A DNA stretch of 52,656 nucleotides, the filler included, from Catajapyx aquilonaris (Eukaryota): assembly GCA_000934665.2 (NCBI GenBank). It is 2 parts of 2 records of this genome, joined end to end, with 100 filler letters (N's around TTAATTAATTAA, not from the genome) between each part and the next. Parts side by side here need not be neighbours in the genome. Positions count along the whole stretch, not along the records: positions 26,376 to 52,656 come from JYFJ02005229.1; 1 more part is not named here. One strand, written 5' to 3'. The notes under the pieces are model-generated. The model saw only the letters and a program-made list of their open reading frames with translations, did no database searches and had not been told where the DNA came from. Below are positions 15,782 to 48,769 of this stretch, piece by piece. The position numbers were made by a program, and so were the translations under genes. How positions within the stretch are numbered: the stretch's first letter is position 1; every line of letters begins with the position of its first letter.

Positions 15782-17009
15782 ATGGACTCTAACATGTGTT
15801 CTTCAACTGCTCCCGTGTAAGTGAAATGTTCCTGCTACCATAATATTATTGACTTCTTCCCTCCCAGTATAGGCCTATGCCAAATGCAATATTAAGATTT
15901 GTAAACTTTATTGTGATATATTTCAGCCCAATTGTATCGCCAACTGTCACAAACGTGAAAGCCTACCACCGTGCAGCAGAAGTACACATATATGCTGCTG
16001 CTGACGTTTACAAGAGAAACCAGAAAAAGTACGAGGATATGGATCTCAGCTGCAACCAAGCGGTATGGAGTTTTAGAAGAATCTGAGTACTGTTGTTGGC
16101 CTGTAGCACTGTGTTCAAGATTTGAACTTCATTTTCAGGTGACGGTGGCTATCAAGTCAAATGAGATAGCGTCGGTAAAAAAAAATGAGGATGATGATAA
16201 CCTGCTCAAGCGTTTGGCGCAGAAGGTACATGAGACCCTGAATGATTGCATGGCGCTGAGTGTGAAGAAGAAGGAGAGGAATCAAAGTCTGCAAGAACTG
16301 CTCAAGGATAGAAGCTGTATTCTTCAGGGCTCTAATAGAGTTTTCAGTGGGGCACAAGCTGGACATGCTGCACAAAAGCATGAGGATCAGCCAGAGTAAT
16401 TATTATTATCTAGTTAGCTAATTAGATACTTGTAGTATTGTACTGTAGTTAAATAAGTCTCAGCCTGACAGCTTCTAAAGGCTTCACAAGTTCACAATAG
16501 CAAAATAATCCAAGTAATTGAAATGTACCAGTACAGTATTTCAATTGGAAGGATTTTATCACTGTCTTGCTCTTTCAGAATGGGTAACATCCCCTTTGAA
16601 GCAGAAGCAGAAGACATCGCTGAGACAGTCAGAAAAACCCTTGCAGACATAGTTGCGTGCAAAAAGGGTCAGGCTGAACGACTCAATGACTTGGCGGTTA
16701 ACATGAAAACCAAGGTATGGGATCAGCTTCTGAAAATTACCTGTATTTGACTGTAGACATTTCGTACTTCTTGTTTGGCAGGTTGCTGAAGTCGCATGCC
16801 TGAAGAAGAAAACCGTGAAGAGGGAGGAAGAAAATGCATTTATGCTGAATGGGGTAGGGAAACAGGTGACCATGGTTTGCAATGAGATTGTAGCTGTTGA
16901 GGAGCGCAAAATGGAATTACTCAAGCATTATGATGAGCCCAGGAAAAGTGATCCTGCCCTTCACCCTGGCAGTGGGCTTCCTCCAAAGACACCTCTTAAA
17001 CCTCAATAG
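15782..17009 (+). CDS. Uncharacterised 263-aa helical/coiled-coil protein, 5 coding exons
   Basis: Exons 15782-15816, 15927-16062, 16139-16395, 16579-16714, 16782-17009. Four short GT-AG introns (110, 76, 183, 67 nt) with matching phases; 792 nt ATG to TAG with no internal stop. Possible 5'UTR donor gtaagt at ~15565. Confidence 0.8.
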
Positions 17010-17719
17010 GTTTCCAGGGATCACAGATGAATGGGTGCCGTGCGTTCCAAAGGCCTCCGTCCACTGGCCTACTAAAGATGATGGTACATGAGCCTGGTCC
17101 TGGACCTAACCATTTGCCTATATCCACTTTCCAGTAGACGTAATGTCACATGTTGTCTTGCTATTGGGGCATTTGTTGCATTCAGTGTTGTTGCAGATGT
17201 TTGATAGCAATGTACCAATCATTTTATATTTTTGCATTAACGTCCTTTTGTCACTGAGCCATACCTGACAACTCAAAAAGTGTTTTTTTTGTTTTTGTTT
17301 TTGTTTTTGTATTAACTTCCTTGCTCATCGTATGCTATATTTTCTTGAGTAAATTCAGCAAGTCAGAATGAACATGATATGCATTGTCATGTGAAGTCTG
17401 TCATATTTAAATTGTAGTTGATAAATATTACAAAGAAAAGTTCTTCCCTCAATCAAAAACTATCACACATCTTTCCTTTTGGCTTAACTTCATGCGTTGC
17501 ACTAAAAAATTGATTACTACAGTACTTTTCCATCCACGGCAGAATTAGAACTAATAGAAATTAGATGCATGTTGTAATATATTATTATTAATTTGTATTC
17601 AAATCCCTGAAGTTTAGTATGTACAATTTTATTATTGTTTCAATCAAATAATAGTGATGAGTCATATGAGGCAACAATAAAATAAAAATTAACGGAACAT
17701 GATGCAATAATCAATGAAA

Positions 17720-17990
17720 TGGTAACCCTGTGATAGGCCTATTACCTCTTAGGAGATCGTCTTTTAAATTCCCAACTTGATTCAATTCCTGTGCTTCTGA
17801 TGGATATTAATAGTGGAAGGAAACAAAAGATCCCTGAAAAAAAGCACCACAGCATGGAGAGAACCCATTAAAACTCTTTCCACATGAAACAATCTTTTAA
17901 GTGTGATCTTTGGTGTGATCCCTGGATCAAACTCGGGACCTCAGATGGAGAAGACTGTAAATAAGTACTACACCAGCAGCTTGCTACCCT
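17720..17990 (-). mobile_element. Degenerate V-domain SINE
   Basis: Homologous to 22991-23173 and to the tail at 9620-9660. Confidence 0.6.
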
Positions 17991-18055
17991 AAAGGTTTGC
18001 AATATACAGTATGTGGCTGCATCAGCAACAGTTAAAGTCAAATACTGCATATATA

Positions 18056-18350
18056 CAGGGTGTTTGTTACTAGTCCAGCCAACGACCGTCAGCGTATTCC
18101 TTGGGCCAAAACAAGTCGAAAATGCAGAATATGAGCTGTGATAACCGCTTAACTGTGAAAGAGCGACCTTGAAAATACCAACAGTCGCTATTTTCATGCC
18201 CATATCTTGCTCCGTTGGCAACCATTGACCAATGTTTCTGGTCAATATCATATTAAAGGTTGCACCCTTGACATTTTTCTCCCCTACATTTTCGACTACT
18301 TTTGGCTCAAGGAATACGCTGACAGCCATTGGCTGGACTATTTAACAATC
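18056..18350. mobile_element. Tc1/mariner MITE
   Basis: TA|CAGGGTG start; ~70-bp inverted arms (TAGTCCAGCCAA..GTCAGCGTATTCCTTG). Confidence 0.65.
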
Positions 18351-19812
18351 TTAGTTTAGCCTTAGCCTTAGAAGTATAATAACAGAAAAATTCATAACTT
18401 ACATTGTACTAGTTGTAATGACGAAAGATGTGAGCCAGAGCAGATCTGAATTTTTTTTTACATGTCTAATACATTTCAACATGAACTCCACTAGTAGTGC
18501 AGCAAAGGTCCAACTGGAAGTCTGCCTCAACCCATGTGTTTAGAAGAATTTGGGGGGGTTACATTATAAAATGCAGTGCAAATTCTGTCCTGCAAGTCTT
18601 GGAAATTATGCACCTGTGTAGCCTATACCTGTCTTTAACAAACCCCAACAGGTAAAAGTTAGGTGGAGTTAGGTCTGGTCATTTGGGGGCCATGCAATGA
18701 ATGTTGGTCATCTTCCAATCCATCATGCAATCGTCATCCATGAAGGTGCAGACATCATTTGCAAAGTGAGGGGGAGCCCCATCTTGTTGAAAAATGGTTC
18801 CTTCAGGAATCTGAAGCACAGCGAATTCTCCCGAGGAGGAAAAAAAAGGGACCTGTGATTTTTCACTTCATGATCCCACACCAATCATTGCATTTTGGAG
18901 AATACCATTTGTATTAATGAAGTGTATTAGTACAGGGTCATAGAAAAAAAAGTCTCAATTTTAAAACCCTATAGCTCGAGACCTTGTAGACATCCAAATG
19001 ATTTAAGTTTTGAAATGCTAAGAAATTTCTGAACTTTTGGTCTTGCTACAGTTTGTTTCGACATGAGCTCCATTTGTTGCTCGGAAAATGTAAATATGGT
19101 AATCAGTGTTGTGCCTAACCCGCTCAGAAATATCTAGTATTACTATTGCAATCTTATCCCGAGTGTGCTGGAGATGCCGGATCTTTTCACCATACATGTA
19201 CCTCCACAAATAGGTCCATCAGGGTCATTTCTGGGCTTCTGGGGGGACTAGGCACAGGGAAACTTCTCATTCAAGACTTCGCACATTGGGAGGTTGAACA
19301 TATGAAACTTTCCTTTGGCAGGTTTGTTTCATGGATGAGGCGACTTTTTATGTGCATCATTAAGGATAATACGTTCACTAAAGATCGGGATATCCAGCAC
19401 CTACGGGATAGGATCACAATGGTAACTCCAGATATGATTGAGCAGGTTTGGCACGAAATCGAATAGTCTTTTTAATCTGCTGAGCGACAAATGAAGCTCA
19501 TATCGAAACAAACTAAGGTTAGACAAAAACTTGAGACATTTCTTAGCATTTCAAAACTTAAATCATTTAGATATGCCTACAAGTTCGAGTTACAGGGTTT
19601 TAAAATTGGGACATTGTTTCTTGATAACCCTGTATATTGAGTGCATTGGAGATGTAAAATAAATATATAATAAAATAAAAATAAAAATATAAATATATAA
19701 AAAACAGACCTGCTCTTTAAACTGGCCCACACCTTCTGTCATTACAACCAGTACTTTGTAAGTTATGAATTTTTCTTTTCTTATAGCTCTAAGGTCTAAG
19801 AAGAACACCCTG
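18350..19812 (-). mobile_element. Degenerate Tc1/mariner transposon with a nested MITE
   Basis: ~110-bp diverged TIRs; remnant FQQDGAPPHFA..WIGR..WPP..PDLTP on the minus strand (~18480-18900). Confidence 0.75.
18933..19632. mobile_element. Tc1/mariner-derived foldback element made of two transposase 3' ends
   Basis: TA TSD; CAGGGT termini; ~250-bp arms encoding RATNGAHVETN-like tails; central VCFMDEATF motif. Confidence 0.8.
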
Positions 19813-19946
19813 TAAATTAACTAGTAATCAATGCCCGTTGTAACAGGCATAACTGACATATTTCTATGTTTTTGTGTAAGCAGGGTGTTTTGCAGTGTCT
19901 TATGGGATTCAATTTATTCAAATGTAGAGGTCTCTGCTAATTGGTA

Positions 19947-20325
19947 CAGGGTGGCCGAAAAGTCCTTTATCAATGGGTGAATACAATGAGAAATAATTAT
20001 TCCATGAGTAAAAGCTACAGCATATTTTCAGTGTGGTTCCCACCAACATGAAAACATAACTGTAGGCATGTTTTCACATTCTGCAGAATGCGGGACACCA
20101 TGTCTGGCGAAATGGTGCAGCAATCTACAGCAATATGTTGATGCATATGATGCGTGTCCCTGATCTTCACAGCATATACACTTTGCATTTCAGAACATGA
20201 AAACAAGGCCTGCAGTAATGTTTTGACATTCGTGGGTACCACACTGAAAATATGTTGTAGCTTTTACTCATGGAATTATTTGTTACTGTATTTACCCATT
20301 GATGTGGGACTTTTCAGCCACCCTG
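19947..20325. mobile_element. Tc1/mariner-derived MITE, both arms from the transposase 3' end
   Basis: TA|CAGGGTGG ... CCACCCTG|TA; tail VYAVKIRD..CFHVGGNHTENML*. Confidence 0.8.
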
Positions 20326-21030
20326 TAGATGGGTGTTTCTCTGTCAGGTCCCTAGGCCAATCAGTAGCAGCAGGCGGTTGTGATTGTTGCACCAAGTAGG
20401 GGTACCCAATCCTTTTGAAAATCCATCGTGTTGCATCAGAATTTTCCGAGGTCTTCAGCCACGCAACGTGAATTGTGGCTGGTGGCAAAAATCCTTCCCG
20501 ACCACAATGCACATCCAGAATGGCTCCTGGGCCATGCCCGGCCACTCGCCACCAACCTGAAGCAAACCCTTCCTGACACAACCCCACCCAAACCCTGGGC
20601 TTATGCCACTACCAGGTGATGAGTGCACATGATGAGTGGAAAACCACCTTCCACCAATCCACTCTCCATTTCCCTGGTAGAATAAGATTCAGAAGCATTT
20701 CTTCCCTAGCTCACAATAAATATGAGAATATCTGCAAGGACACACTGTATTACACATTGAAATGTTCCTACTTCCAGTAATGTAATAATAGTCCTAATAG
20801 CTCTGCCCTCTCAAATAAACCATGCTCCCCAGATCTTTGCTTCCTGGGTTCACTAACACTAAAATTATTAACCATTAATTTTTATTAAATATTGCAGTGT
20901 CCCTTGATTCACAAGAAAGAGAAATGACAAAGAATAGTTGAACACATGGGGGCTCAGGACATCAGGTATAACAAATACTAAGGGAGGCTATTTTGGGGTA
21001 AAAGCTACATAATGTCCAGCAGGACAACCA

Positions 21031-22300
21031 ATACCTCACCCAAATCCCATAGTCTACACGTGCCCCAAAAAAGTGGAGGGGTGGGGTAGTAAACAAAATG
21101 TGATAAAAAATCTTCATTACGATTATCTGGACTTTAGAATTGATAATTATTATTAATAGTAACAATGGAACTAGGATGGCACCAAAGTTAGTTAATTTGA
21201 CAGTTAACAACTGAAACAAATATGATTACACTTTGGACAGTGAATTTCTGTGGGGTCTGGTAATAATTGCCGTCACTACGTTAATATGTTACGTAGCATG
21301 ACATTAATTTTAATCATGAACCTGAGGGGCCACCAAACCCAAAGACTGCATTGAAATTAATATATTACAAGAAATCGGCATAGAATTTTAAAACGTTTTC
21401 CATGACTAGCAGAGGTGAATTATCTGCACATTTTTGAATGAAGTGATATTTAAAGCCCTTTGCCATTAATTGAAATTTATTATCGTAGCATAATGGACGA
21501 GGTCTAAATACACAATGTCAAATGGAGTTCACCAGTGTAAAAATTTCTGAAAATATACACAATAAACATTTTAAATTCAGTGGCAAATTTTTTGTAATTA
21601 ATTTTAATGCAGTCTTTGGGTTTGTGTGGCCCCTCAGGTTCATCATTAAAATTCATGTCTAGATAAGTAACAAATTAACCACAGTGACAGCAATTATTAC
21701 CAGACCCCACAGAAATTCACTGTCCAAAATGTAATCATATTTGTTTCAGTTGTTAACTGTCAAATTAACTTTAACTTTGGTGCCATCCTAGCTCCATTGT
21801 TACGATTAATAATTATCAATTGGGGAGGTGTTGATGGCCGAGATGGTCATGTCTCGGCTTGCTGAGTGAAAGGCCCCATTTGAGCCCCCGCCCCGCCTGG
21901 GGAGTTCCCTTTCACCTGCGTCAGGAGGGTCTCTCACCTGCACCAATGAGGTGTCTGGCAACCTAACCTCCTGGGGGACTGCACATGGCCCAAACTTGAG
22001 ACATTGCACCTGCACCCCTGTCCCCTCCCCGAAAATCCCTATGCTTACCTAATGTCCTTGATTCTTTGCACTGGAGATGAAGAAAATATATAAGAAAACT
22101 GATGGTGGTGTTCCACCTCCCAAAAAGGCCCTTGGGCCTACATGGGGTAAAATAAATACAAAAAATATAAATAAAATAAAATAATAATCAACTCTCAAGT
22201 CCAGATAATCTTAACGAAGATTTTTTATCACATTTTGTTTACTACCCCACCCCACCACTTTTTTGGGGCCAGCACAGACTACGGGATTTGGGTAAGGTAT
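21031..22300. mobile_element. Foldback element with a SINE inserted in its right arm
   Basis: Inverted arms 21031-~21460 versus ~21490-21821 plus 22186-22300. Confidence 0.8.
21822..22180 (+). mobile_element. tRNA-derived SINE
   Basis: Head GGGGAGGTG..GCCGAGATGG; A-rich tail; approximate TSD ataattatcaa/ataataatcaa. Confidence 0.8.
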
Positions 22301-22398
22301 ATCCTAATTATCCAAGTTAACAAGGCAACAGTCAAGAGTCCTTTGCCAGGAGACTACAATATCAGTGTCAGTAATGCAGCTAAATATAAGGAGTTTTT

Positions 22399-22864
22399 GG
22401 GGAGGTGTGGTAGCCGAGATGGTAACGTCTCGGCTTGCTGTGTGAAAGGCCCCAGGTTCGATCCCCGCCTGGGGAACTTTCCTTTCACCTGCATCAGGAG
22501 GGTCTCTGACCTGCACCAAGGAGGTGTCTGGCAACCTAACCTCCTGGGGAACAGCACATGACCCGTTTTCAGACGTGCACTTGCACCCATGTTCCCTCCC
22601 CGAAAATCCCTATCCTTACCCAATTTCCTTGATTCCTTGCACCGAAGTTGAGTTGAGAAACTTGAACAAAAATAAATAAAGGTTCATGCGATATACCCCG
22701 GTTGGGGGTGAAAGCATTACCCACGATTATTATATTATTATTATTATATTACCCCCGGTTGGGGGTGAAAGCATTACCCACGATTATTATATTATTATTA
22801 TTATATTACCCCCGGTTGGGGGTGAAAGCATTACCCACAATTATTATTATTTATTATTATACAC
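22399..22864 (+). mobile_element. tRNA-derived SINE with triplicated 57-bp 3' end
   Basis: A box TAGCCGAGATGG, B box GGTTCGATCC; 14-bp TSD TATAAGGAGTTTTT (22385-22398, 22865-22878). Confidence 0.9.
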
Positions 22865-22990
22865 TATAAGGAGTTTTTAAAATCTTTCCATACAAAATTG
22901 AAATGACCATTATCTAAGGTCATTATCATCTCCTGTGGTTTGGTTTGCTGGCTGTGCCAGTAAGCAACTAAGCCAAGGCTATCTGGCATT

Positions 22991-23173
22991 CATGTGATGG
23001 GTTTTTGGTAGTGGGAGGAAACGGGAGAACCCCGAGAAAACCCATGCAACCATGGGGAGAACCCATTGAAACTCTTCCACATAAGTGTCCTCCGTCAGAC
23101 CTGGAGATCGAACTCGGGACCTTCGAGATGGAAGGCTGTGGCATTAACCACTACACCACCATGTCGCCCCTCC
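22991..23173 (-). mobile_element. V-domain SINE with tRNA head
   Basis: Reverse strand: TGGTGTAGTGG (A box), GAGTTCGATCT (B box), GTTCTCCCCATGGTTGCATGGGTTTTCTCGGGGTTCTCCCGTTTCCTCCCAC. Confidence 0.8.
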
Positions 23174-25774
23174 CAGCATCTATGGAGCAAGCGTTCTAAG
23201 TTTCAGACCTCCACAGCCAATATGTTCTAACCTTGCAGCGAATGTTCTTCCTACAAGACAAGTCAATCCCAAATGAAAATAATGTAAAATTATGGACATG
23301 ATCGGTTGGCAGGAAAGGGCAGGACTTCCACTGCAAGGTTAAAACAGATGGGCTATAATATAGCTTTAAAAAGAAGGGTCAGAGAAGGCCCACAGCTTCT
23401 CTCAAATTTATGCTCGGGGCTGTATCTCTTGGATAGGATGGATAGGAAACTAGCACCAATGGGTGGATCAACTAATCCCACACAAAAATGTGGGGAGTGT
23501 CCAGACTTGTACCAGACAGTGGTCTAGACCAGTGGTTCCCAAACTATGGGCCGGGGCCCACCAGTGGGCCGCGAGCTTTATTTTTATTTTTTTTAAACTA
23601 TGAAATAATGATCTTGCGAAATGAGGAGCAAGAGCACAGTACGTAAAAAAAATACATATATTGCAGCTCTCAATAAGGGAGGTGACTCTCACTCAAAAGA
23701 TAGGGTCGAGTCTTTTTTGCCCAGCTGTGACACTTGACAAATTCCCTCAATCCTTCCCATCACCTGAGTTGTGACCTTCTCTGCTCAGCAACAGCTAGAA
23801 AGATTCAGAGTATTCAGAAACAAACACTGGTGATCTTAGCAGGTAGGATTTATTGGACTCATGATAATACAAAGTCTAGCAAACTGGGGGGAGGGGAAAG
23901 AAGGGAATGATACAAGACCGGCTCCTCACCACAAACTGCATTCCCAGCAGGGGTGCCCGCTCAGACTCCTCCTGCCTCGCCCAAGTGAGAGGAGGTTAAG
24001 TGGTAGCTGGCATTTTTCACTTGCTCAGGGTATGACCCTTTCTTAACTTTGCTTTTAAACTTGATTATGCAGTTAACGAGAAAAAATTAGAGCAAGGTAA
24101 CTGACGGCATGCACAAAAGCTTGTGGATAAATAAGAATGAGCAATATGGAACCCACCTCATACATGAAAATGGCTTTTTGGTGGTATACATTCCCTTTGC
24201 GTCAGTACTTTTTTGTTGTTACCTGCCTAATTTTAGTCGTAAACTGCAATATTGCATTAAGTTGTGCTACGAGTGTAACCGACATACTCCACATAAATCA
24301 TACAACTAGATCCAATGGGACTTAACTTGCACTACATAAATAACAAACAAAAGAGACATCAAATATGTTTTGTCATGGGCTTCCATTGGAAGACAGGTGT
24401 GTTAAGAACACTTAAAGCAGGTAATGAAGATCAGTTAATCAGTTATTAGCATTTGTTCCATAACCAGGGACAAGTGCCACTCTGTGCTATCTTTAACTGA
24501 GCTTTAAAACTGGCCCTAATTGTGTTCACACCAGATGTTTACACCATTTCAAACTTGGGTAGGGGTTAACACTTTCTTTCAAAACATATTAAGGCAAATC
24601 AATAAATACTGTCATTCATTTTAAAATCCTTGGAAATGATTGTGGCCCAACTGTTATACAGGAATGAAAGTATTGTGCAGTACAACCAACATGTAACGTT
24701 GCCTGTAAAATAATGTAACAGCACATGAGACCCACGTACTTTTGCCTAGAGGAGAGATATGTATGTGAAGGGCAATAATTATGACCCACCCCCCACCAAG
24801 CCCAATATGATGCATTATCTCCATGCAAGATGGAAATACCAGAAATAACAGTAAATAAAGCCACAGTGATTAAGTACATTTTTACCAGGTAACAATCCAT
24901 GCTGGTCGTACAATGCTACAGTATATGTCAAAAAAAGTTTCGGACAAATGCATCCCAGTGCTGTGCTGATGGTTGTATAGCACCAGGACACATTTTTCCT
25001 AAACCTTTTGCAACATGTAGTGCACAAGGATCGGTAATATTATTCTACAGTCTCAAGTCCATTTTTTTGCAATAATGGTTGGAAAAGGTTCTCCACAGAT
25101 GGGGCATGTGCTAAGTGTGTGAGATTGTCCCATCTCCTGTGAACACAACAGAAGCAAATGCTTTAGAAAAGAAAGCTAGTATGGAAAGATCCCATGGGAC
25201 AGGTGGGAACCTTTTCATCCTGGGTGGCAAGATTGTCCTCTACATACAGGGTGTATGTGAATTCCTCTGCCAAAATGATGCACATGGTAGGGGGTGCGTA
25301 TGGAAGAGGCATGGCATGGGTCCGAAAGCCAGCTAAGCTCACCTCGGAGATGTCAACCTTTGACATTGACCTTGACTTTGACGATATCCTCCTGAGACCT
25401 GAGAAGAATTTTTAACGTAATGTCAGTTCCTATTGCATTTTCTGAACATTTCCCCAATAAGAAACGAGAAAATTTTTAAAATTTTAAAATATCGACAAAA
25501 ACAGTGACAAACAACTAATGAGAACTTAGGATCCAATTGCTGCTTCAAAAGCAGAACGGATGAAAGCAGAAACTTTAAATGCCACTTAATGGATAACTAA
25601 CATAGTGCTCTATCCTCAAAACAATGTTTTTTAAATTCATTTGTGGAATTCGTGGTAGCAATTCCTCTCAGAAGACAATTAAAGATAAATTAAATTATTT
25701 TTGAACGCCACCACTCCAGGCATGGGGCTTGCTCCTTCCCTTCTTACCCTGTAACATGGTACCTCGCTATTCTA

Positions 25775-26275
25775 CGAGGAGTGATCAAAAAGTAAGGTCT
25801 CCAAGGCTGTAACCTTTATTCTGTATGAACACAAATGACGAAACTTACAGGGTACATGAGGACAATGGACATCTACTTTTCTACCTAGTTTCCACAGCGA
25901 AGAACACACTTGTCCCATCGCCAGACCAGTTTCTCAATCCCTTCCCAATAGAAAGGGGTGCCCTGTTGACAGCACCAGTCACACCCAGCCTTCTTCACCT
26001 CATCGTCGCTTCGGAAATGCTGACCTGCAATGTCTGCTTTCAGGGCTCTGAATAAGTGATAGTCTGTGAGGGCTAGGTCGGGACTATAGGGTGTGTGAGG
26101 AAGAACTTCCCAGTCGTATCCATTCAGCAAAGCCATGGTGTCCCTCGATGTGTGCGGACGGGCGTTGTCGTGGAGAAAGATGACCCCAGCAGTGAGCAAT
26201 CATGGTCGTTTCCACCTGATGGCCTTCTGCAACTTCGCCAGGGTCACTGCGCTCCGAATTGATAGTCGCAACTTC
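25775..26275 (-). mobile_element. mariner (DD34D) element, 3' part, truncated by the assembly gap
   Basis: LHDNARPH..WEVLPHTPYSPDLA..DYHLF..RWDKCV; terminus TA|CGAGGAGTGATCAAAAAGT; premature stop just before VEK*. Confidence 0.9.
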
Positions 26276-26375
26276 NNNNNNNNNNNNNNNNNNNNNNNNN
26301 NNNNNNNNNNNNNNNNNNNTTAATTAATTAANNNNNNNNNNNNNNNNNNNNNNNNNNNNNNNNNNNNNNNNNNNN
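26276..26375. other. Assembly gap with six-frame-stop linker TTAATTAATTAA
   Basis: N run with ttaattaattaa at 26320-26331. Confidence 0.95.
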
Positions 26376-26960
26376 GCAAATGAACGGGACAGAACTATAC
26401 GTAATCGGTCGCGAACAGATGCACAAGTGGGTTGCGATGTCACGGCGCACTTGTGAGAGATACATATGATCGCCTCCCTGAAAACCCCGTGACAACACAT
26501 GATCATGGCCAAAAATATACATCGTGCGACATTGGCATTTGAGTTGTCTTGCCAGGCGTACCTCGACTATAAACAGCTAAGCAAGATTTCCGGTGTCTGG
26601 GGGGCCTTTTATCGGCGATATTGTGAAGGGGTGCTTAGCATGAATCATTTCCTTGCTGGAGTCGGTGAGGCGGTCAATAGCTTACGTAACGCGAGGTGTG
26701 ACGATGTGTAGAGACATCTGGCACCTGAGATGTTTGCAGGTTGTGGAAGAATGCACAAGCAGGGTTGTTGATATAATAACATAACGTAATATTTTTGCTT
26801 CGGAAAAATCTCACTCGATTCACGCACCTTGAAAATTGCATCGGGGTTCGCGGCCGTGAAGAAAGATTTATCGATTCTAAGTTACGTAATGGGGAGTGTG
26901 TTTTTTTATAGCTTGATTTGCGTGGATTTGCGCTTTCACGGGCTTGGGTAAAGCGGAAAG
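26376..26960 (+). promoter_or_regulatory. CpG-rich putative NPC1 promoter/5' region
   Basis: CpG-rich island ~1.4 kb before the first identified NPC1 exon; E-box/CLEAR half-sites GTCACG (26439), CGTGAC (26488), CACATGA (26496). Confidence 0.4.
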
Positions 26961-28372
26961 GCAAATTGGTTGTCCAGGTTATAAGTGTATAATTACTTTT
27001 CACATTAATGGGCAAGTGCAGCATTGTTAAAAGTTCAGGACAATTTTACGGGAAGTCTGGGATTGTGTAGCTATATGGACAGCTGGTGTATCAGTTGTGA
27101 CAGATTGTTTCCCTGTGGCCTCTGTTGCATTAATTTATATGACATGAATGGCTATGTATTTATGGGCACCAGTGTATATTTGTTCGCATGCCTTCAGATG
27201 CTTGTACCCCCCNCCTCCCGAAAATCCTACTGTTTGTACGTCAGTCTGGGCCGTGAAGGTTTTTAGACGTACTGATAGTTATGTAATAATGGAAAAGCAG
27301 CTACTTGCTGTAAGGAAAATATGTTTTTTTTTTTTTCGTTTTTTCCTGCCCTTTACAGGCTGCAGGGCATTACGATTTCAAGCATATGCTGTATTAGGGC
27401 TGGAAAAAGAAAATCCAAGAACACATGGTTGGATGTTTGTTTCAGGATGATAAGTGCAGTGTTGCATTGCAAGATAAACATGCTTTATAATCTGGCAGGA
27501 GATACTGAAGGTCCATGCAGTTGTTGTGAATTTGACAACAAAATTAGTGGTTTGTGCAAAGTTTAATGGTGGTAGCAGGGCCCTGGTGGTAGCCCCTAAG
27601 TAAGACCGTAGTATAGCATTTCAACAATGAATTTTTTCAACTTCTTGTTGTCGTTACGTTTTTTTTTTTCCATTTGCCCTAACTCAGATTGGGCTGCAGG
27701 TCGAGTTTCCAAATTTTGAACACAGATCCCACTGTCATGAAGTGATTTCCACCCATTTATAGCTAAACTGAATTCCTCTTCAAATCACACATGCAAGCGA
27801 AGCCTGAAAGAGTTGATTGTTCATGTAGGCACAAAATTTGTTTTACCCGTGTGCATTGATTCCATAGTGTGTCATTACAGATTACATTTTCTGTAAAAGG
27901 AGAGTCAGTATTGAGAAAGTTGCCATGGCATTTTTGTCTCGCCTTAGCATGCTTTCATGTGGATATAGGTATGTGATGATTATATTGTACCCCAGACGAG
28001 CGAGAGGAAAATGTGTATAAAATGCAGTTAACTCATATCTGTGGTGTTTAGTTATAATCTGGTGTCCTATTTCTGCTGCTAATGAGGTATTCCTACTGTT
28101 GCTTTCTATGCAGAAAACTTTGTCAAATGCTATTGTTGCATTTTTTGTTGTAATTTAGATGCCATTCATTACCTTTTGTGTTATTTGGTCAAGTGCAAAA
28201 CAATAACTTGTATACTGCTTCCCTTGGGGAATTGTTTGTCATGTCACATGTGAAAGTGACATTTGAAGTGGGTTTTGAAATTGGCTGTTTAACGTATGAT
28301 AGTGGGCAAAGAATTGAGTCTACTTCTGGGTTAAGATATAGCAGTGACTAAATGCTACATTTTTCTTTGCAG

Positions 28373-28511
28373 GTGATGGGTGATAATCAATGTGTGATGT
28401 ATGATACGTGTGGAATGACCCCATGTGTAGACACCTCGCCTCCAAGGCTTCTGGATGGGCATTTAGAGGATGTTCTGAGGGCAATGTGTCCTGAACTTGT
28501 GCAAGAACAAG
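28373..28511 (+). CDS. NPC1: NPC1 exon, start of N-terminal domain (CVMYDTC..CPEL)
   Basis: ttgcag|GTG...G|gtaatt; Cys pattern matches the start of the NPC1 NTD. Confidence 0.85.
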
Positions 28512-31500
28512 GTAATTAAGTGAAACTGCAAATGGATAGAATAATTGGTTATGTATTGTTTGAGTGGCGCCCCACAGTTGTTTGTTTTATGATATGTACT
28601 GTTTATTATTGACGGTGGCACTTCATTTCTTCACAATGGTGAGATTTTAATGAATTGTTGTCCTTCATACACAGCTACACTTAAGAGAGAGTTGTCCTAG
28701 TTTTTGAGTTCCCAATATTTTGGATTATCTCTATTCCATGTAAGAAGAAACTAGGCACCAACTTGCCAAAATTTGGCAAAAAAATTAAGCAAAATTGCGA
28801 AAGTGGAGAGGGATGGAGAGAGAGAGAGGTGGGGGGAGGGAGAAGGAGGGAGGTGGGGGGAGGGAGAGAGAGAGACGCGCGGACCAGGCAACAACATCCA
28901 ATGGCGAAGTACCGAAGTAAGATGGTGTGGAGGTAGTGCCCGCGGCCGGAACTGCATTTAGGGGAACTCCGTGGTGGTTGGTTTTTTTAGGCGGTCAGCC
29001 ACCACAGTAGGGTATTAATAATATAGATGGCTTTAAAAAAAATTGTCAGCCAAGCATTGATAAGTGGGATTTTCACATGCTTATTTGTGCATGCTTGTAG
29101 TGCCCACATTGTCTTGTAGTAAGTAACTTGAAACTGATACAGAGTTTCTCTGGAAGTTCTAATGATTATTTATTCATTGTCCAGGAGGCCGCAATCTGAA
29201 GGTGTGCTGTGCCCAGTCTCAGATTGAGGCTCTGCAGAACAACTTAGCCATACCTCAAGGCCTTCTCTCTCGCTGTCCGGCATGCTACCAGAATCTCAGG
29301 CTGTCCCTGTGCAAGCTGATTTGCAGTCCTGACCAGGACCGCTTTCTAAAAGTTGCAGCCTCCAAGAAGGATGACAAGGGTCATCATGTCACAGATCTGG
29401 ACTGCTACATTGGGGAGTCATATGTTGAAGGAACATACCGCTCCTGCAAGAATGTGATAATGAGTTCCACAAATGGTCCTGCTATGGATCTATTTTGTGG
29501 ACCTTGGGGAGCTTATAGGTGCAATGCCCATCGCTGGTTTGATTACATGGGATCTATCAAGAATGGATTCTCGCCATTCAACATCCGATACCTGTATGGG
29601 GATGAAGCAAAGGGGAAGATTCAGCCTATGAACCCATCTGTCACTCCTTGCAGTCAACCTTTGGAGGTAAATGCTGCATCCAAGAGCACAAAAGGAGTCG
29701 CAGGATTTATTTGAACAATTCTATAATAGAACATGAATTTCTCTAGAGAATTTAAAAAAAAAACCTGTGTAGATTGTGACCTGTTACACACTATACATAG
29801 TAGTATTTAAATGAATACAGTTGTCGTGCATTCCTATGACTATTTAAATGATAGCTTGGATAGCATTTTTTAAATGAATAGAACTGATCATTTGAATATA
29901 TCATAATTGTATCAGTTTTGCAAAAATTATACAAAGTGTTGCAACTGCTACAGGTCTCTGTCGACACTCGTTAGCAAATTATTTTTTTGGCTCAATGTGC
30001 CCTTTTAACTTTCAAGAAGGTACTTCGGAATAGTTGTAATATCACCATATTGTTGATATTAATTAAGTACAACCTGGCTATAACATACCTAGAGAGCAAC
30101 AGAAACTTGTCTGTTATTGAATGCTTGTTTGATCCCAGGCTCCCAGCACTGGATTCTCCAAGTATTTCTGTGACATTTAACTAGACCTGTTCAGGATGGA
30201 CATAAGTTTCAGATTGGAATGATGCAAGTAGATAAGTGACAGTATTTGCTTGGATGTGATAATTTCTTGAAAGTTATAAATTCAAATGAATTTCCATGCT
30301 TAAGGCCATTTTGACCTTTTGACATCCAATGTTGAGTCAATTTTGCAAACTGGTTAAATAGGAATTAGCTTACTGTTAGTATTATTATTAAAATGATCAT
30401 TTCATTTGGAACACACTTTATCCTGATAAAATGGTGCTCTTTTGTAACCTAAGTGCCACAATGTGTATACCACTTGTGTTGCAGAACTCAACTCATGGCT
30501 GCAGCTGTGTGGACTGCCAGGACAGTTGTCCAGTGGCTCCACCATTGCCTCCTCTCCCTGAAGAATGGAGGATTCTGGGTGTGGATGGACTCACTTTTAT
30601 CATGGCTGGAGTGTTTGTTGTGGGTGTCATTCTGTTTGTCATCTTTCTGCTGCTGAGCCGCAAGGAAAGGACTAGATTGGGTGAGTATTCTAATAAATCT
30701 CTGCAAAAATTGCCTGAATACTAATGCATTTGTGTTACAGTCACAGTCTCTTAAGTGTTGTATTAAGAAATATGTTGTTGCTAAATTCCCTAGCAGTAAT
30801 ACAAGTATACTAGTATGTTGCTGTAAAAAGCTTGTGAAGCACTTCTGTTTGGAAGGCCACTGGTTCAAAGGATTTGTGGGATTGTAATGCTGGTTCACTG
30901 GTTGTATAGCACCGTATGTAATCATTTATGGCAGTTCATGGTGTGGGTCATTGCCTGAGATATACATAATATAGTTTTGTTGGATGTAGCTATTGCAGTG
31001 ACATTTTACTGAAATGTTTAACTGGTGAGCTCAGCCACTTGTAGCTCATACTAGCAATTCTGGCTGTGGAAAGTAAGAAAGCTGTGGCTGAAGGGACAAT
31101 TGATCATGTCAAGTGAATTTTCGTACGTGATTGTTATATATTCTCTGGAAGTTATCACTTATTACAGATGACCAATATTCATAGTGGCCACATCAAGGTG
31201 ATTTAAACGGATACGGTTATGACAATGACCAAGAAATTTGTCAATCACATACATTTATAATAAAAAATACGTCGCGACATTTCATGCATGCAATGAGGAG
31301 CGTGGTGAAAAAAGGTGATAACCATCATTTTTGTCATTTTTGACCTAAACACCTAGAAACTATGTAAAAGACATGACAAACAGTTTGGTATACTCCAAGT
31401 TCACATATTATCTCACAGACTAGATCAAAACCCGTATTCCCTATGATTTGTGAAGAGAATGCAAACGTCAATTCACTCTCCTGAAAAATTACGCTTTTGT

Positions 31501-40500: not shown

Positions 40501-43500
40501 CAAGGAATGTGTACAGGTTGTGTGGAAGGGGTCAGACACTTTAATAATATGACATTTAAAAGATGTGCTTCATTATCTACTGATTCTTTCTGATGTTATG
40601 GATGTATCTGGCCTGGTGAAACCAGTCATAGATTCTGATTTTTTGATATGTGCATGTGTGACAGTCTTCTCTGCTATTACATGTGGTACATGTGTGATTA
40701 CAGAACATATATTGCAAGACCACCATCTTCATGGTTAGATGACTACATTGATTGGTCTAACTTTAACATGGATGATTACGCTGGCGGATATCCATGCTGT
40801 CGGGTCCATGAAGATGGGCATACCTTTTGTCCAGCTACTGATGGTAAGCATATATTAAATCATGCACGTTTATTATTAAGAAGGTAAGGTACAGTGTAGG
40901 TGCTCTCCTTTTGCAGAAGAGAATGAATGTGAAAACTGTGAAATTCAATTTGAAAATGGGAGGCCAGATGCAGAATCTTTTAAACGCTACCTGCCTTGGT
41001 TCCTGCAAGACAATCCAGGGGAGCAGTGTCCAAAAGGAGGACATGCTGGATATGCCCAGGTACAGTACATTTTTAGTTGCTATCAAAGTAAGTGGCACAA
41101 GTGCATGCTTCAGTGAATCACTACTGAAATTAACTTAAGGAAAACTGGGTTCTTTTACTGGATCTAGGACAGGGCTATTCAATTGGCGGACCGCGACGAT
41201 GTACAGGATAGTTTTAAGTAGCATTAGAAATTACTAATTAATGATTTTTTGGAAAAAGTGCTACCAATTTTATCAAATACACACCAATTCAAATCTCCCA
41301 CTTTCACCTAAGCTCGTGTGACCTTCAACCCCCTCCCCTCCAAAAAATGTGCCTGTTATGGCTTGTTCACCTTGTGCTTATGAAATGGGCTTCCCTCTGA
41401 AATTTTTCTACCTACGTGCCTGTACAGGACATCATAAAGGGCGAAAATGTCTTAATAGGCTCTTCTACCCGTGCTGCACATTTTTCTATTTTCAAAATTG
41501 AACATCAAGTTTGTATGTTCAGAAAATTCTCACTCACTTTCGGACTACCTAGAGACTCAATGTTGGCATGCTGTCATCTAATTAGCTGAAACTCCAGGGC
41601 GAAGTTCAAAAATTCCAATTTTAAAGGGACACTCCACTCAAAATGCAAGTTGGGCTCTAAAAATCGGGCAAAAAATCCTGATTCCGAGTGTATAAGCAGT
41701 TTTTCTGAGAGACGAACGGTAAGGCCAGGGCGAGCCGTCAAAGTTAGGCAATTCGCATCTGCCGCAAAACAGCAGCGCCTCCCCCGGGACTGGGCAGAAA
41801 TTGGGATAATCTTGCGCCATCTTGATCCACGCCATGGTCCGCGCCATCTTTGGTCCGTCCCACAGGTTCATCCCGCCACCTCTTGACCCGACCCGACTTT
41901 CAGCCCTAAATCACTTTCGCCTAGGGCCCGGTGGCGGCGCTCACGGCGGTGGCGGACTGGGCTGGCGGGGCAGCTCATTAGCAGACGACGCAAATTCTGA
42001 GTCTTTAACCCCTCGTCCTGGCTCTTCTGTTCCGCGTAGAAAAAAACCGATTGCACCTTCGGAATCAGGATTTTTTGCCCGATTTTTAGAGCCCAACTTG
42101 CATTTTGAGTGGAGTGTCCCTTTAATGCTTTCTTTTCTACTCGCATGTTTTTGTTTGTTTGTTTGTTTGTTTGTTTGTTTGTTTGTTTTTTTTTNGGGGG
42201 GGGGGGGGGGTGTGTTCTCCCACTTTTTCACACAATCAAAATCCATCACGACATAGTCAATGATTCAAGTCAAGGGAAAAAAGAGGGCCTAAAAGCCCCC
42301 AGTCGAGTAGACCTATCATAGGGTATCCAGTATTAATTTATTGTTCTTATTATATGAAGTACTGTGGAAAAATATTTGTGATTATTAAAATATTAATGTT
42401 TCCTTTGCTATTAGGGAGTGAAGTGGAAGCGTGAATCAAACACAAGCGTGGAAGTTGGCTCCAACTACTTTATGACATATCACACTATCCTGAAAACATC
42501 TAAGGACTATTATGAGGCCTTGGAATGGGCTCGTGCAATATCAGCTAATATAACCGACACCTTGAATGCAGATCGTCCATCAGAAGCTCCAGCAGTGGAG
42601 GTGTTCCCCTACAGCGTGTTTTATGTGTTTTATGAGCAGTACCTGACCATGTGGAGGGATGTTCTGACTTCCCTTGGAATTTCACTGGCCGCCATATTTG
42701 TAGTCACCTTCCTGCTGATGGGGTTAGACATCTACTCCTCGTTGATTGTCATTGTCACAATCACCATGATCGTCACCAATCTGGGAGGGCTTATGTACTG
42801 GTGGGGCATCTCCCTGAATGCAGTCTCACTAGTCAACCTGGTCATGGCCGTTGGAATTGCCGTCGAATTCTGCAGTCACATAGTACATGCCTTTGCGGTT
42901 TCTGATGAGGAAGGGAGGGTGGCCAGGGCGCAAGATGCCCTCATCAACATGGGCAGCTCTGTAAGTATTGGGATTTGGGATCAAGCACTCTGTTGGTACT
43001 GTCAACTAAGTTTCAAGACACCTGAAAAAGTCATTCAATTTTAATTATGTGGCTAATAATTAGGTGACATACAGTAGATGCCACATTCCTTATTTCATAG
43101 GCGAGTTGTTAGAACTAATAGTGGGTGTGAAAATATTAAATGTGTGACAAGATGTCTAAAATTTATCAGGTTGTGGTTGTCTGATGCTTGTCAGTAAAAT
43201 AATTCAATGTATTAGTGCTGATTGCGAGTTAATAGTGCTTTTATAATTGTTACTACATTTTAGGTGCTGTCTGGAATCACCTTGACCAAGTTTGGTGGGA
43301 TTGTCGTCCTAGGATTTGCGAAGTCTCAGATCTTCCAGGTGTTTTACTTCCGGATGTATCTAGGAATAGTGCTCTTTGGAGCAGCACATGGACTAATATT
43401 TTTGCCAGTTCTTCTCAGTTATGTTGGTGAGTGACACATTTTATATGATAAATTGTGTTAGTTTTTAGTGTCAGGTGTGTTGATGTAACACTTAATGTCT

Positions 43501-43610: not shown

Positions 43611-45198
43611 TGGAGAGGATTTTTGTGATCATAATATAAAAAGGATATATTGCAGGAAAATACATAATCTGTGATAATTGACTACAGTGCAGCATTACTT
43701 TCTGAAGCCAAATGCTTTCAGAAACATACCGAGGCATTTGAAAAGTCAGCATACTTCCAGACTAATCTGCGATATTTTTCTTGGTGTGCAGGCATGAGGA
43801 TGGTACTTGTGGCCAGCCAACGCGTCCAAAGACTTGAATCAATATTTCCAATATTTTCTCAGCCAAGAGTCAAGTGAAGGGGGGAGTATGATTTATAGAT
43901 CTTAACTAAGAATTCTGATCTGATGGCTTAACTGGTAGACAGATTTTGGACATCTACTCCCATCATACCTGGAAGCGGGAAAAATATGCTAAGCCATGCA
44001 TGTGGCCAGCATATCCCAGTGCATTTAGTGCTTTAAAAAAATACATCCCCCCCATCCCTTCCAAAGTTGTATTTCTTTTGTATGTGAAACTCTCTATGCT
44101 TTTCGGGACAAAGCTGAGTTTTACAGTGAGTTGGGCCCAAAGTGCTGTTTTTTGCGGTGGACTTGGAACATTCCGTCTCCACTCTCAGTGCCTCATGAGT
44201 ATTCATGTTCCCATTTTCCCCCTCCATGGAGCTGAGACATCTGAAGACAAGATTTAACAAAAGGACATTAGTGGCATAAGTGAAATTAATGCTCTCTGGC
44301 TGTAAGGTTCACAGTGACACTTAATTGAGCTGAACCACTACACGCATGTAACTTAAGATCAACTGCGCTTAAAGTAGGCATAGAGTATTACCAAATGGTT
44401 GTGAAAGAATTAGAAATGTCAGGCACAGCAGAAACATTGTGGCACATTGATCAGTGGCATGTGGCAACCTATTTTATACTCGCTGTGGTTTGCTTAGGGT
44501 GCAGTCAGCCATGGTTGCGATGCAAAATCCCATTTTTGTATCACTTTTGTACAAGACAATAGGTGTTCGAAATGGATTGCAACACATGCAAACAACAGTA
44601 AATCACTTAGCTTCACACTCAGCCATGTTTATCAAACTCGGAAGTGGTAATTTTGTAGTCATGGAACCACAACAATTGTTTGCTCAGTGTATTATTTTTG
44701 TGCCTCTTGAGACTTTGATGCAAAGAGTGAGTGAGATTTTAGGAGTGGATTTTGCAGTGTGTCAGAGAAGAGTGGATGGAGGCTACCTATTGTAAGTGAT
44801 GATAATGCTATTATATTAATGATTAAATGACTGGAAGTAAATGTGTGGTTTGCTTTATGTAATCAGTTGCTTTTAAGGAGGACCTGTCCCATTATCCTTC
44901 AATCCTATCATAAGTAAATTAATCATTTTGGTAATTGGGGAGTTTAGGTCGGCGCGAAATACAGCTCTGTTGTGATACTTAATTGAAAAACGAGTGTGCA
45001 GGGACCTAGTACTGACGCAGAGGAGTGCGGCAATTGCAATTTCAGCGCAAAAAACCGCGTAGAACAGAAGTTACAGGAATAATAACATTACGTGTTGTAC
45101 TTACATTACATGTTCCGATTTCACCTGGCGGCGGTCAAGTTTGTTTACTTACAGCGATACCAATAGTCACCCTGATCGATACTCGATGCCATTCGAAA

Positions 45199-47428
45199 AT
45201 GGAGGGCTTTCAAGTTCGAAAGTGCGAAGGATGTCTCCTGACAAGTTTCTTATTCTTCCCGATGGCCACTGTGCGCGAGGATCTACTCAAGTTTCTGTTA
45301 AACCATGGACTCATAAGTGACAAGCATACGTATTTGTGGACTTTGTGGGAGTGGATGCCAAGTGCATTGGGAGAAGAACACCTTCACTTGTGAGAGGACT
45401 GTCTCGCTCCCAAAGAAAAAAAGGAGGCGCCACAAGTATACCCGTTCCATTTTCACTGGTACATTTTTTGAGCGCTCTCACCTTCCTATTCAGACGATCT
45501 GTGGCATAGTATTTCAATGGCTGACGAGAGATCCTCCTCGGCAGCAATTCCTAGAGAGAGATATGGGAATTGATCACAAGACCGCCATAGACTGGTCTTC
45601 ATTTTGTCGTGAGGTGTTGATTAACTGGGCAGTTGGGCACACGGAGAAGATTGGTGGGGAAGGAGAAGTGGTAGAAGTGGATGAGGCTAAATTTGGAAAG
45701 AGGAAATACAATCGCGGGAGATTAATAGATGGCCAGTGGGTGTTTGGAGGCATACTGCGAAGTAACCCGAAGAAGGTGTTCATGGTAATGGTAGACAGGC
45801 GAACTAGTGAAGCTCTATTGTCAGTCATTCAGGACAAGATATATGACGGCACTACTATTATGAGCGACTGTTGGAGGGCTTACGATTGTCTGGAGAGGGA
45901 AGGATATGAGCACCTAACAGTGAACCATTCCGTAAATTTCGTGGATCCACACACTGGAGCCCACACACAAAACATCGAAAGAACGTGGAGGGAGGTTCGC
46001 TCAAAAGTCCCTAGGTAGGCCCTTCAATTTCCTACGAAACTACGACTTTTGGCTGTTAGTCTACTGGTTGCCGTGTCACGCACGAGCGACGTACCGTGCC
46101 TGGCAGGGCCACAAGACGGACAGTATTGTTGCGGTCACCCCAAAGCCATACAGATGACACCGACACAACGGGAAGGGCCTCTTTCGTTAATCAATCTGAT
46201 GGTTGGCAAAGCCACAATAGTGTTCGTTGGCCTGCGGCGCCACAAGACGGACAGTAAATGTTGCGGATACAGAAACCCACAATAAGCGCCCAGCTCCGCT
46301 ATCGCTCCGCATTAACTAAAAATATCACGCACGGGCGACGTACCGTGCCTGGCAGGGCCACAAGACGGACAGTTTTGTTGCGGTCACCCCAAAGCCACAC
46401 AGCACAGCCTTTTCCGTTAACATAGATGCAACTTGGCGTAGGCTAATAACGAAAAAGACTGTTCCCGTTGTGTTGGTGTCATCTGTATGGCTTTGGGATG
46501 ACCGCAACAATACTGTCCGTCTTGTGGCCCTGCCAGGCACGGTACGTCCCCCGTGCGTGATATTTTTAGTTAATGCGGAGCGATAGCGGAGCTGGGCGCT
46601 TATTGTGGGTTTCTGTATCCGCAACATTTACTGTCCGTCTTGTGGCGCCGCAGGCCAACAAACGTTATTGTGGCGCCGCAGGCCAACGAACACTATTGTG
46701 GCTTTGCCAACCTTCAGATTGATTAACGAAAGAGGCCCTCCCCGTTGTGTCGGTGTCATCTGTATGGCTTTGGGGTGACCGCAACAATACTGTCCGTCTT
46801 GTGGCCCTGCCAGGCCCGGTACGTCGCCCGTGCGTGATATTTTTAGTTAATGCGGAGCGATAGCGAAGCTGGGCACTTATTGTGGGTTTCTGTATCCGCA
46901 ACATTTACTGTCCGTCTTGTGGCGCCGCAGGCCAACGAACGTTATTGTGGCTTTGCCAACCCTCAGATTCAGATTGTGCGTTTTGAATCCGCAACATTTA
47001 CTGTCCGTCTTGTGGCGCCGCAGGCCAACGAACGTTATTGTGGCTTTGCCAACCTTCAACCTGACACTAATATACGTATCAGTAATTATTATTATGCCCT
47101 CATCGTGTTCAATAAATATTTCATTACGAAAATGTCACGGGAAACCAAATGATCGGCATCAGTCAAAATGTCACGGCGGCCTAAATGACCTGCAGCCAAT
47201 AGTCCGACAGCTAGTTGACCTGCAGCCAGTATATCATTTGTACTCATTGGTCACCATTAACCCTTACGTCAACTTCACATCTTAAAACGCAGGTATGGCA
47301 GAAGGAAACACCACTATGCTGGATACTTAGCGGAATTTATGTTTAAAAGGGTCTATCCTGACCACCGCGAAAGGATGCATTATTTTCTGGAAGCAGCTGC
47401 CACCTTGTACCCGCCTAACACGCAGTAA
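45199..47428 (+). pseudogene. Merlin/ISXO2-like DDE transposase: frameshift near 45328, intron-like interval 46015-47292
   Basis: CxxC zinc ribbon, DWSSFCREV, KIGGEGEVVEVDEAKFGKRKYNRGR, WVFGG, GTTIMSDCWRAY, HLTVNHS.NFVDP.TGAHTQNIE; after splicing ..VPR|YGRRKHHYAGYLAEFMFKR..TLYPPNTQ*. Confidence 0.9.
46076..47057. repeat. ~250-bp unit in tandem and inverted orientation (foldback) inside the Merlin intron
   Basis: Forward copies start at 46076 and 46325; reverse-complement copies run 46464-47057; recurring core GCCACAAGACGGACAGTA.TGTTGCGG; symmetry centre ~46432. Confidence 0.92.
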
Positions 47429-48769
47429 GGTACGTGACATATACAGTTCCTTATCGTTATAGGGCTAGAGTATCGATCAGTGTGACCTACGGTGTGACTA
47501 TTGGTATCGCTGTAAGTAAACAAACTTGACCGCCGCCAGGCGAAATCGGAACATGTAATGTAAGTACAACACGTAATGTTATTATTCCTGTAACTTCTGT
47601 TCTACGCGGTTTTTTGCGCTGAAATTGCAATTGCCGCACTCCTCTGCGTCAGTACTAGGTCCCTGCACACTCGTTTTTCAATTAAGTATCACAACAGAGC
47701 TGTATTTCGCTCGCGCCGACCTAAACTCCCCAATTACCATTATTTTTTTCATTCAGTCAGTTTATCATGGATTTTTCCCGGCTATGACCAGGTGAAGACC
47801 ACGCCTTGCCATTACAGGTGACTGAAACATGACTGTGAATCCTCCAGTGACTTGTCAGATACACACGACAGAGGATTTAATGACGAGGTAATAATAATGA
47901 CGTCGATGACATGAACAGAGTATACACGATACACATTCATCCAGTGTCAATATTATGAATACATAAATGACGAGGTAAGCAACTGGCAGGCAGCAAGAAC
48001 AAGCTCCCTCAAATCTCCCAGTCTTTCCACTTCTCATGTCACCAAAAAAGAAACTTACTGAAAATGTGCATCCACACCATGAAAAGCTTGCCACAGGATG
48101 GCATACGCAGGCAGCATTGTTAACTCTCATCACCCAGGCCATGCCGTCTCACCCACTTGTGCTGATGACAGCTATCCTCCAGGCAACATAAATCCATGAG
48201 GTTAGTATGATTGAAGATGACTCTAACTTGCATCCACACCAGTCAAAAAATTGCCATGAAATACACTGTACTCCCTATTATTATCTGTGATAATGAATGC
48301 ATAGGTGTTCCCGGATAATCAGTAAGCATCCAAAAATGGTCCTACAGGACATGAAAATTATCTGTTTGCATATTTTAAATGAACTACTGTACATAGTGTA
48401 TGCAGCTTTAAATAGGGTTTAATCAAAATAATAAAATTAACCATAGATTTTTACACGTAGTTTGTCTTTTGGATAAAGTGTGTTACATTTCTTTAGTTTC
48501 AAGCCACTGATATAGTATTTTTAAATCTTGATTTCTAGCTTTTGTTTTTAGTGATGCACAGATATAATCTGCACCCCCACCCCATATAATCTAGTCTGGG
48601 ACCTATTGAGCACAAAAATCAGGCCTAACTCTGCACTTTTTGATATGAAGGTGCCACTTGGCAAACATGTTCCCCAGGCCTTTATTATTGGCAACACTGC
48701 TGTAACATATCAGTATGGGTACACACTTGAACATTTCACACTCCATAGATGTAATCCTCAGCCATTTTA

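Follow-up and report, generated by a model that had tools for sequence, protein, structure and literature searches.

The window analyzed here, a 52,656-nucleotide (nt) stretch of DNA from Catajapyx aquilonaris, contains a Merlin-type DNA transposon whose transposase gene is split by an interval of 1278 nt. The interval is probably a true spliceosomal intron in the transposase gene of a Merlin family that is young and has moved recently. It most likely predates the family and would have been enlarged by units of an abundant genomic repeat, a state inherited by all or nearly all copies. We infer that it is actually spliced. The intron would lie in phase 2 of the arginine codon of a conserved motif, ..IPR-(Y/F)GRR.. 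(hyphens mark splice borders in all motifs given here), and would have grown from a few hundred bases to its present 1278 nt as repeat units lodged in its middle, where they could form a hairpin of approximately 330 bp. Splicing out the interval would produce a transposase of 294 residues. An unspliced message would stop at TAG (46016-18) and encode a protein of 250 residues, with the DDE residues kept and the conserved last 44 residues lost.

Predicted splice borders and presence across the family

The two coding parts on either side of the interval would together encode one protein. The upstream frame (45317-46018) ends in ..VPR, directly followed by the TAG, and the conserved C-terminus resumes at 47293. 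This frame matches Pfam profile PF12762 (DDE_Tnp_IS1595) over positions 5-127 of 153 (E 2.1e-14; 54.2 bits against a cut-off of 27) and has 1926 database homologues at E <= 1e-5; among the matches listed, PF12762 is present in all 120, and the top homologues, at 43-60% identity, include many from arthropods. When both parts were aligned with 13 homologues (alignment A1; 47-55% identity), the end of the exon-1 row and the start of the exon-2 row fell in adjoining columns against all 13, with no gap and no overlap. D122, D184, and E221, which we take to be the catalytic triad, are present in the window transposase, and all three stand in nearly invariant columns of the alignment. Exon 2 contains five further nearly invariant columns at the C-terminus (G, H, Y, R, and H). 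Joining 46014 to 47293 gives ..REVRSKVPR-YGRRKHHYAGY.. with a single final stop. The junction motif was found in 95 of the 120 homologous proteins listed, every one of which continues through the junction and none of which ends there; the other 25 had no match to the motif.

The interval has GT..AG borders. It opens with GTAGGC and closes with AACGCAG, and a branch-like ATTAAC is located 31-36 nt upstream of the acceptor AG. Six frame-keeping pairs of GT and AG exist within 30 nt of the borders, and only 46015/47292 retains all homologous residues. AGGTA is found at both borders (46013-17 and 47291-95), where the outside bases (T..G versus C..T) set the length of the direct repeat at exactly 5 nt. 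A first-pass annotation of this DNA had described the same anatomy, and it held up: the frame end and the resumption at 47293 on reading and by script, the GT..AG borders with their branch-like motif, the exact restoration of frame upon removal, and the AGGTA on each side.

The interval is not peculiar to the copy in the window. We aligned Logan contigs of four public runs to positions 44700-47950. Three runs (X1, X2, and X3) belong to one sample and are guessed to be DNA, with contigs of at most 58 kb; the fourth (X5) is from another sample and had no cover over the Merlin body. In X1/X2/X3, word depth was 28.5/17.9/38.7 in the unique flanks vs. about 352/234/440 in the Merlin body, a roughly 12-fold difference that is indicative only and does not count copies. 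Contigs running across the 5' border are X1 record 3 and X3 record 17, which cover 45844-46105 at depth 410/417, and X2 record 9, which covers 45143-46063 at depth 234. At the 3' border, the crossing contigs are X2 record 13 (47174-47521; depth 197), X3 record 20 (47174-47421; depth 334), and in X1 a contig of depth 379 on which 47235 and 47276 lie and which extends to about 47322. The four differences in X1 record 3 (46039, 46058, 46064, and 46068) all lie within the interval, and among the differences listed for the contigs none touches a splice site. Because contigs at family depth cross both borders, the interval is common to the family as a whole and therefore not private to the window copy. 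No copy lacking the interval was seen. Specifically, the joint 46014-47293 was absent among the 15 of 90 contig joints listed, where joints at single-copy depth do appear (for example, a 91-nt deletion in exon 1).

The contigs also reveal an open reading frame upstream of the interval. Compared with the multi-copy contig, the window copy has four extra letters (45327-45330), which may be a true mutation or an error of assembly. They throw the N-terminal part of the frame out of register, so that translation from the ATG at 45262 would meet a stop at 45391-93, and this copy is unable to make transposase. The multi-copy contig (depth 352/234/440), which does not have the four letters, runs through 250 open codons between that ATG and the junction. 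The N-terminus that it encodes lines up with the ..FL..H.......C..CG motif of the homologues, and at site 45585 the contig has the codon for Val, as they do, where the window has Ala. Divergence in exon 1 within the family is below 1%.

Downstream of the acceptor, run X1 contains two variants of exon 2, at depths of 278 and about 70, both of which continue from the contig that crosses the border. They differ at six sites. Five of the six differences are synonymous in the frame of exon 2, compared with none and two of the six in the other two frames (P 0.02, given that all differences are transitions), and a 10-nt indel between the variants leaves the position of the stop unchanged. This is what a translated exon 2 would be expected to look like, although recombination with another lineage could also have imported the pattern. 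In the window, exon 2 and the 3' end (47323-47460) correspond to the minor variant (about 70 vs. 278 in X1) and differ by 4-6% from the major one, as against less than 1% in exon 1, which suggests recombination between subfamilies.

Insertion of the element itself is polymorphic. In the empty-site contigs (X1 record 1 and X2 record 8), only eight letters separate 44917 from 47743, and these contigs thus lack 2817 nt, which is the 2809-nt element plus one 8-nt copy of its target-site duplication. Since exactly this length is missing, the insertion is both polymorphic and recent. The empty-site haplotype carries a few further differences close by (47775 and 47780). Together, the empty-site contig, the open 250-codon exon 1, and the synonymous bias in exon 2 point to a gene that works in the family, or did so until very recently.

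Relatives and origin of the probable intron

We scanned metagenome contigs for related elements and retained the best 80 of 344 relatives, of which 73 could be scored, having both the end of exon 1 and a match to exon 2. Among the seven others, two lay at a contig end, one had no exon-1 end, and four had no exon-2 match. At the junction, the gap was zero in 65 of the scorable relatives and between -2 and +6 in six (frameshifts or two extra codons). It was 83 nt in locus L044 and approximately 47 nt in locus L062.

The L044 sequence reads CCG AG-gtaat..acag-A TAT GGT, a canonical 83-nt GT..AG intron that interrupts the arginine codon interrupted in the window, and in the same phase. Across residues 69-233, L044 aligns with the window query in one piece at 57% identity and with no other interruption; its residues 1-68, read by eye, show decay, in that a stop codon replaces Trp and the frame is shifted. 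Because a distantly related Merlin has a short canonical intron at the same position, the window intron is most likely older than the family in which we find it, and we infer that the two introns are homologous. L062, a more distant Merlin (47% identity), has a short GT..AG intron of its own (931-976), located three codons (9 nt) downstream in phase 2 of an AGA arginine codon.

We placed these loci in a FastTree phylogeny of 81 rows and in a quick IQ-TREE phylogeny (LG+G4) of 28 rows, for which 53 of the 80 loci were left out and clade representatives kept. In both trees, the window element groups with L021, an intron-free locus (support 84 and 85), and L044 branches beside these two, outside a clade of uninterrupted elements (support 96-97). 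Forcing the window element and L044 into one clade lowers the log-likelihood by 1.9 units, and the test does not reject such a clade (p-AU 0.43). The trees would accommodate one gain, possibly with a loss, as well as two gains, and do not decide between them.

An opposing explanation is that the intron was gained within this lineage. DNA would have entered an ancestor without the intron at a proto-splice site reading AGGTA, through transposition with a 5-bp duplication or as the filler of a repaired break, before the family amplified, and the intron of L044 would be a parallel gain. An exact 5-nt direct repeat does flank the interval, and the junction is the sole AGGTA among the four AGGT sites of the spliced coding sequence. 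Insertion into AGGT is a published model (in the available portions of PMC3443670 and PMC9860276), most relatives are uninterrupted, and the maximum-likelihood trees put intron-free L021 next to the window element. Yet the codon at the site gives little room for a parallel hit. Of the 61 readable uninterrupted loci, 48 have CGN there, nine AAR, three AGA, and one CAA, and AGGT occurs at the site only in L044, where its GT is the start of the intron. With AGGT in none of these 61 relatives, there is no conserved proto-splice hot spot here, and two independent hits in the same codon and phase are not favored.

The repeat can also be explained otherwise. Given an intron here, AGGTA at both borders follows from the splice consensus, with its GTA donor, combined with an AGG arginine codon and a TAT tyrosine codon. 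All that is needed is AGG where L044 has AGA, and an A at donor position +3, which is found in the window, in L044, and in L062; the TA is set by the tyrosine codon. A repeat of AGGT(A) at intron borders is thus, by itself, no evidence of recent intron gain.

The composition of the interval also speaks against a recent insertion. Its core of approximately 980 nt is made of units with periods of 93, 249, and 277 nt, and word depth there climbs to 15,000-28,700 in three runs, compared with 18-39 in the flanks. Many loose contig ends occur within the core repeat at 46958/9 and 47051/2. The two outer parts are not repeated above Merlin depth in the contigs, the window contains no further copy of them, and blastn-short (word size 7) showed no resemblance between them and the Merlin exons; the ends of the interval have no terminal inverted repeats (TIRs), and no inverted pair joins them. 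Because the outer parts stay at Merlin depth and only the core is high-copy, the segment between the splice sites does not, as a whole, show up as a mobile element, in contrast to its filling. A gain would have no evident source element, and no interval-free copy occurs among the contig joints listed. For an introner-type or break-repair gain in particular, the 5-nt repeat is the single point in favor. Taken together, these results make a gain within this lineage unlikely.

These results also bear on what the first-pass annotation had left as alternatives. It had proposed either a built-in intron or a recent gain of the introner type. The built-in intron, as opposed to a private disabling insertion, is supported, though only indirectly, by the family-depth contigs, by L044, and by exon 2, whereas the recent gain that the AGGTA duplication was thought to mark is not borne out. 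The comparison with related Merlins, by which the annotation would have refuted a recent gain, does so only in part: one of the 73 scorable relatives has an intron at the site and one more has an intron 9 nt away, and 65 are uninterrupted.

A second opposing explanation is that the interval disables its host gene. It would never be spliced, and roughly ten copies of a non-autonomous subfamily would have been moved in trans by an intact Merlin, the GT..AG ends and the frame being by-products of a 5-bp duplication. Non-autonomous derivatives commonly outnumber their masters. The window copy is frameshifted, the family is too young, given its exon-1 divergence, for decay to be visible, and the depth over the outer TIRs (1685 vs. 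about 350 in the Merlin body) suggests that derivatives are mobilized in trans. On the other hand, three coincidences would be needed, namely the codon and phase of the L044 intron, GT and AG at the ends, and a branch-like motif in front of the acceptor. Furthermore, the synonymous bias in exon 2 lies downstream of the supposedly disabling sequence, and the joints listed contain no intron-free copy. We consider a disabling insertion quite improbable.

Several observations nevertheless weigh against an old and functional intron. Uninterrupted genes predominate among the scorable relatives (65 of 73), and the nearest relative in both trees, L021, is intron-free, such that a single origin requires a loss or a different tree. 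The tract in front of the acceptor appears modest, with only 62.5% pyrimidine (25 of the 40 nt before AG), as judged by eye. In the donor GTAGGC there is a G at +4, its strength again judged by eye. The hairpin predicted within the interval might hinder splicing. Finally, contigs lose rare variants, and with 15 of 90 joints to go by, the family may hold a rare intron-free master copy.

Were the interval a spliced intron, it could also serve regulation, a possibility that extends the intron reading and is no rival to it. By analogy with P-element IVS3, retention would produce a 250-residue protein that could bind the element's ends and repress transposition; alternatively, the intronic hairpin would feed a small-RNA pathway. 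The stop comes immediately after the donor, the donor and the pyrimidine tract look weak by eye, the predicted hairpin is strong (-843 kcal/mol), and the P element offers a precedent (available part of PMC7776569). However, a stop in that place is automatic with a phase-2 GTRA donor and is found in L044 too, so it carries no weight for P-like gating. No silencer element was identified, and because the hairpin is a genome-wide repeat, small RNAs from it would target the repeat and not Merlin. We give such a gate a slim chance at best. Equally speculative is a fuller version, in which the intron conserved in the window lineage would act both as a trap for hairpin-forming repeats and as a splicing gate between a full and a clipped, DDE-complete protein, with the hairpin tying expression to the host's small-RNA response. 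If a splicing gate did exist, inefficient or tissue-limited splicing would decide between full-length and C-terminally clipped transposase.

The Merlin element and its surroundings

The coordinates of the element and its parts are collected in Table 1. The complete transposon spans 44930-47738 (2809 nt), with one gene between the TIRs, on the + strand. Merlin elements are DNA transposons related to IS1016/IS1595, with TIRs of 24-462 bp that have a terminal 5'-GG, and with target duplications of 8 or 9 bp (available part of PMC8101967). All of the superfamily's marks are found here: the PF12762 domain, long 5'-GG TIRs, an 8-bp duplication, and the acidic residues. The TIR arms pair over 217 nt and 29 nt, in both cases with 100% complementarity, and are offset by a single 4-nt indel. 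The two copies of the target-site duplication are equal at seven of eight bases and differ at one.

Table 1. Positions of the Merlin element, its transposase gene, and the parts of the intron-like interval in the window
Feature	Position	Strand	Basis
Left 8-bp target-site duplication, ATCATTTT	44922..44929		Read in sequence; absent, with the element, as 8 nt in empty-site contig
Left TIR, begins 5'-GG	44930..45170	+	Inverted pairs I1 and I7
Transposase exon 1: zinc-ribbon-like N-terminus and DDE domain; frameshifted in window copy	45262..46014	+	PF12762; alignment A1
Interval of 1278 nt, read as GT..AG phase-2 intron within Arg codon AG-G	46015..47292	+	Sequence; alignment A1; contigs; L044
Outer left part of interval, Merlin depth only	46015..46075 (61 nt)	+	X1 record 3; X3 record 17; X2 record 9
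Core of interval: inverted and tandem units of very abundant genomic repeat	46076..47058		Repeat search; word depth
Outer right part of interval: ATTAAC (47256-61), 62.5% pyrimidine stretch, acceptor CAG	47059..47292 (234 nt)	+	Sequence; depth approximately that of Merlin body
Transposase exon 2: final Arg-codon base, 44 codons, TAA	47293..47428	+	Frame reading; alignment A1
Right TIR	47494..47738	-	Inverted pairs I1 and I7
Right 8-bp target-site duplication, ATTATTTT	47739..47746		Read in sequence; contig comparison

Other origins for the interval were considered and rejected. A short interspersed element (SINE) or a known RNA was sought, with no tRNA gene and no Rfam match at E <= 1. Five frames of 88-144 residues were found within the interval, none with a Pfam match above the cut-off (best 19.8 bits vs. 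27). Tandem duplication of an exon was set aside, as the outer parts match only themselves within the Merlin element. A classical TIR element was likewise discarded: with duplications framed at 2-5 nt, the ends GGCCC.. and ..AACGC, inspected by eye, are neither inverted repeats nor TG..CA.

The repeat in the core is also found in run X5, and most of its other genomic copies end at 46958/9 or 47051/2 (..GGCTTTGCCA). The predicted hairpin occupies 46076-46837, with a stem of approximately 330 bp, and its folding energy carries no shuffle control at such length.

Over the TIR regions (44918-45135 and 47425-47642), depth is 2-5 times that of the Merlin body, and diverged contigs match 47469-47709 with 26 differences and six gaps over 241 nt. 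Both observations hint at older copies or at short derivatives consisting of TIRs only. In addition, a contig at single-copy depth skips 45555-45647 in exon 1, and an internally deleted Merlin copy must thus exist elsewhere in the genome.

To the left of the element, an open frame without a Pfam match (44451-44797) ends at GTAAGT (44792-97), close to the point (44795) where an X5 contig of depth 124 breaks off. The frame may be a host exon, in which case Merlin would lie inside a host intron on the same strand. Farther upstream, frames at 42415-43434 resemble the sterol-sensing or RND-type membrane part of an NPC1- or Patched-like gene, judging from the sequence pattern. The match of this region to the Pfam family ACR_tran is weak (20 bits) and under the cut-off.

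Comparison with known systems

Introns in transposase genes are nothing unusual as such, but we came across no description of one in this superfamily. Control of transposition through such introns is known, the classic example being P-element IVS3. None was described for Merlin in the literature that we covered, which excludes the founding Merlin paper, and the terms "intron," "exon," and "splic" are absent from the available part of one account of the superfamily (PMC8101967). A young, apparently mobile family with the intron in every observed copy, together with a distant relative that has a short intron at the same site, makes a comparative test case. It could bear on the age of the intron, on splicing despite a 330-bp hairpin, and on intron retention as a control of transposition.

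In most respects, the window element is a typical Merlin, with a DDE_Tnp_IS1595 domain, long 5'-GG TIRs, an 8-bp duplication, and a spliced protein of about 294 residues. It departs from other members in having its transposase gene split by an intron, whereas 65 of the 73 metagenomic relatives are uninterrupted at the site.

The resemblance to P-element IVS3 (described in the available part of PMC7776569) lies in the placement of the intron near the 3' end of the transposase gene, and in the C-terminally truncated protein with a retained DNA-binding N-terminus that would result from retention. In contrast to the P element, which belongs to an unrelated transposase superfamily, the truncated product predicted from the window would keep all of the DDE residues and lose only 44 residues. 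Regulated splicing would be conjectural in the window element, and no silencer was identified there.

Introners take their splice sites from target duplications (in the parts available of PMC9860276 and PMC11282704). The direct repeat at the borders of the window intron could supply splice sites in the same manner, and there is repetitive DNA inside. Unlike an introner, however, only the core of the interval is repeated and not the unit bounded by the splice sites, and the borders have no TIRs. Furthermore, we saw neither an intron family spread over many genes nor, among the contig joints listed, presence/absence polymorphism, and the site is shared with the distant relative L044.

Published routes of intron gain include insertion at AGGT, tandem duplication, and break repair (available part of PMC3443670). 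Gain at AGGT proto-splice sites differs from the window case in that no donor element was found, and the lack of likeness between intron and exon excludes tandem duplication. What the window shares with this model is AGGT(A) on both sides of a segment that can be removed exactly, and in the window the AGGTA would be expected anyway from the splice consensus and two codons.

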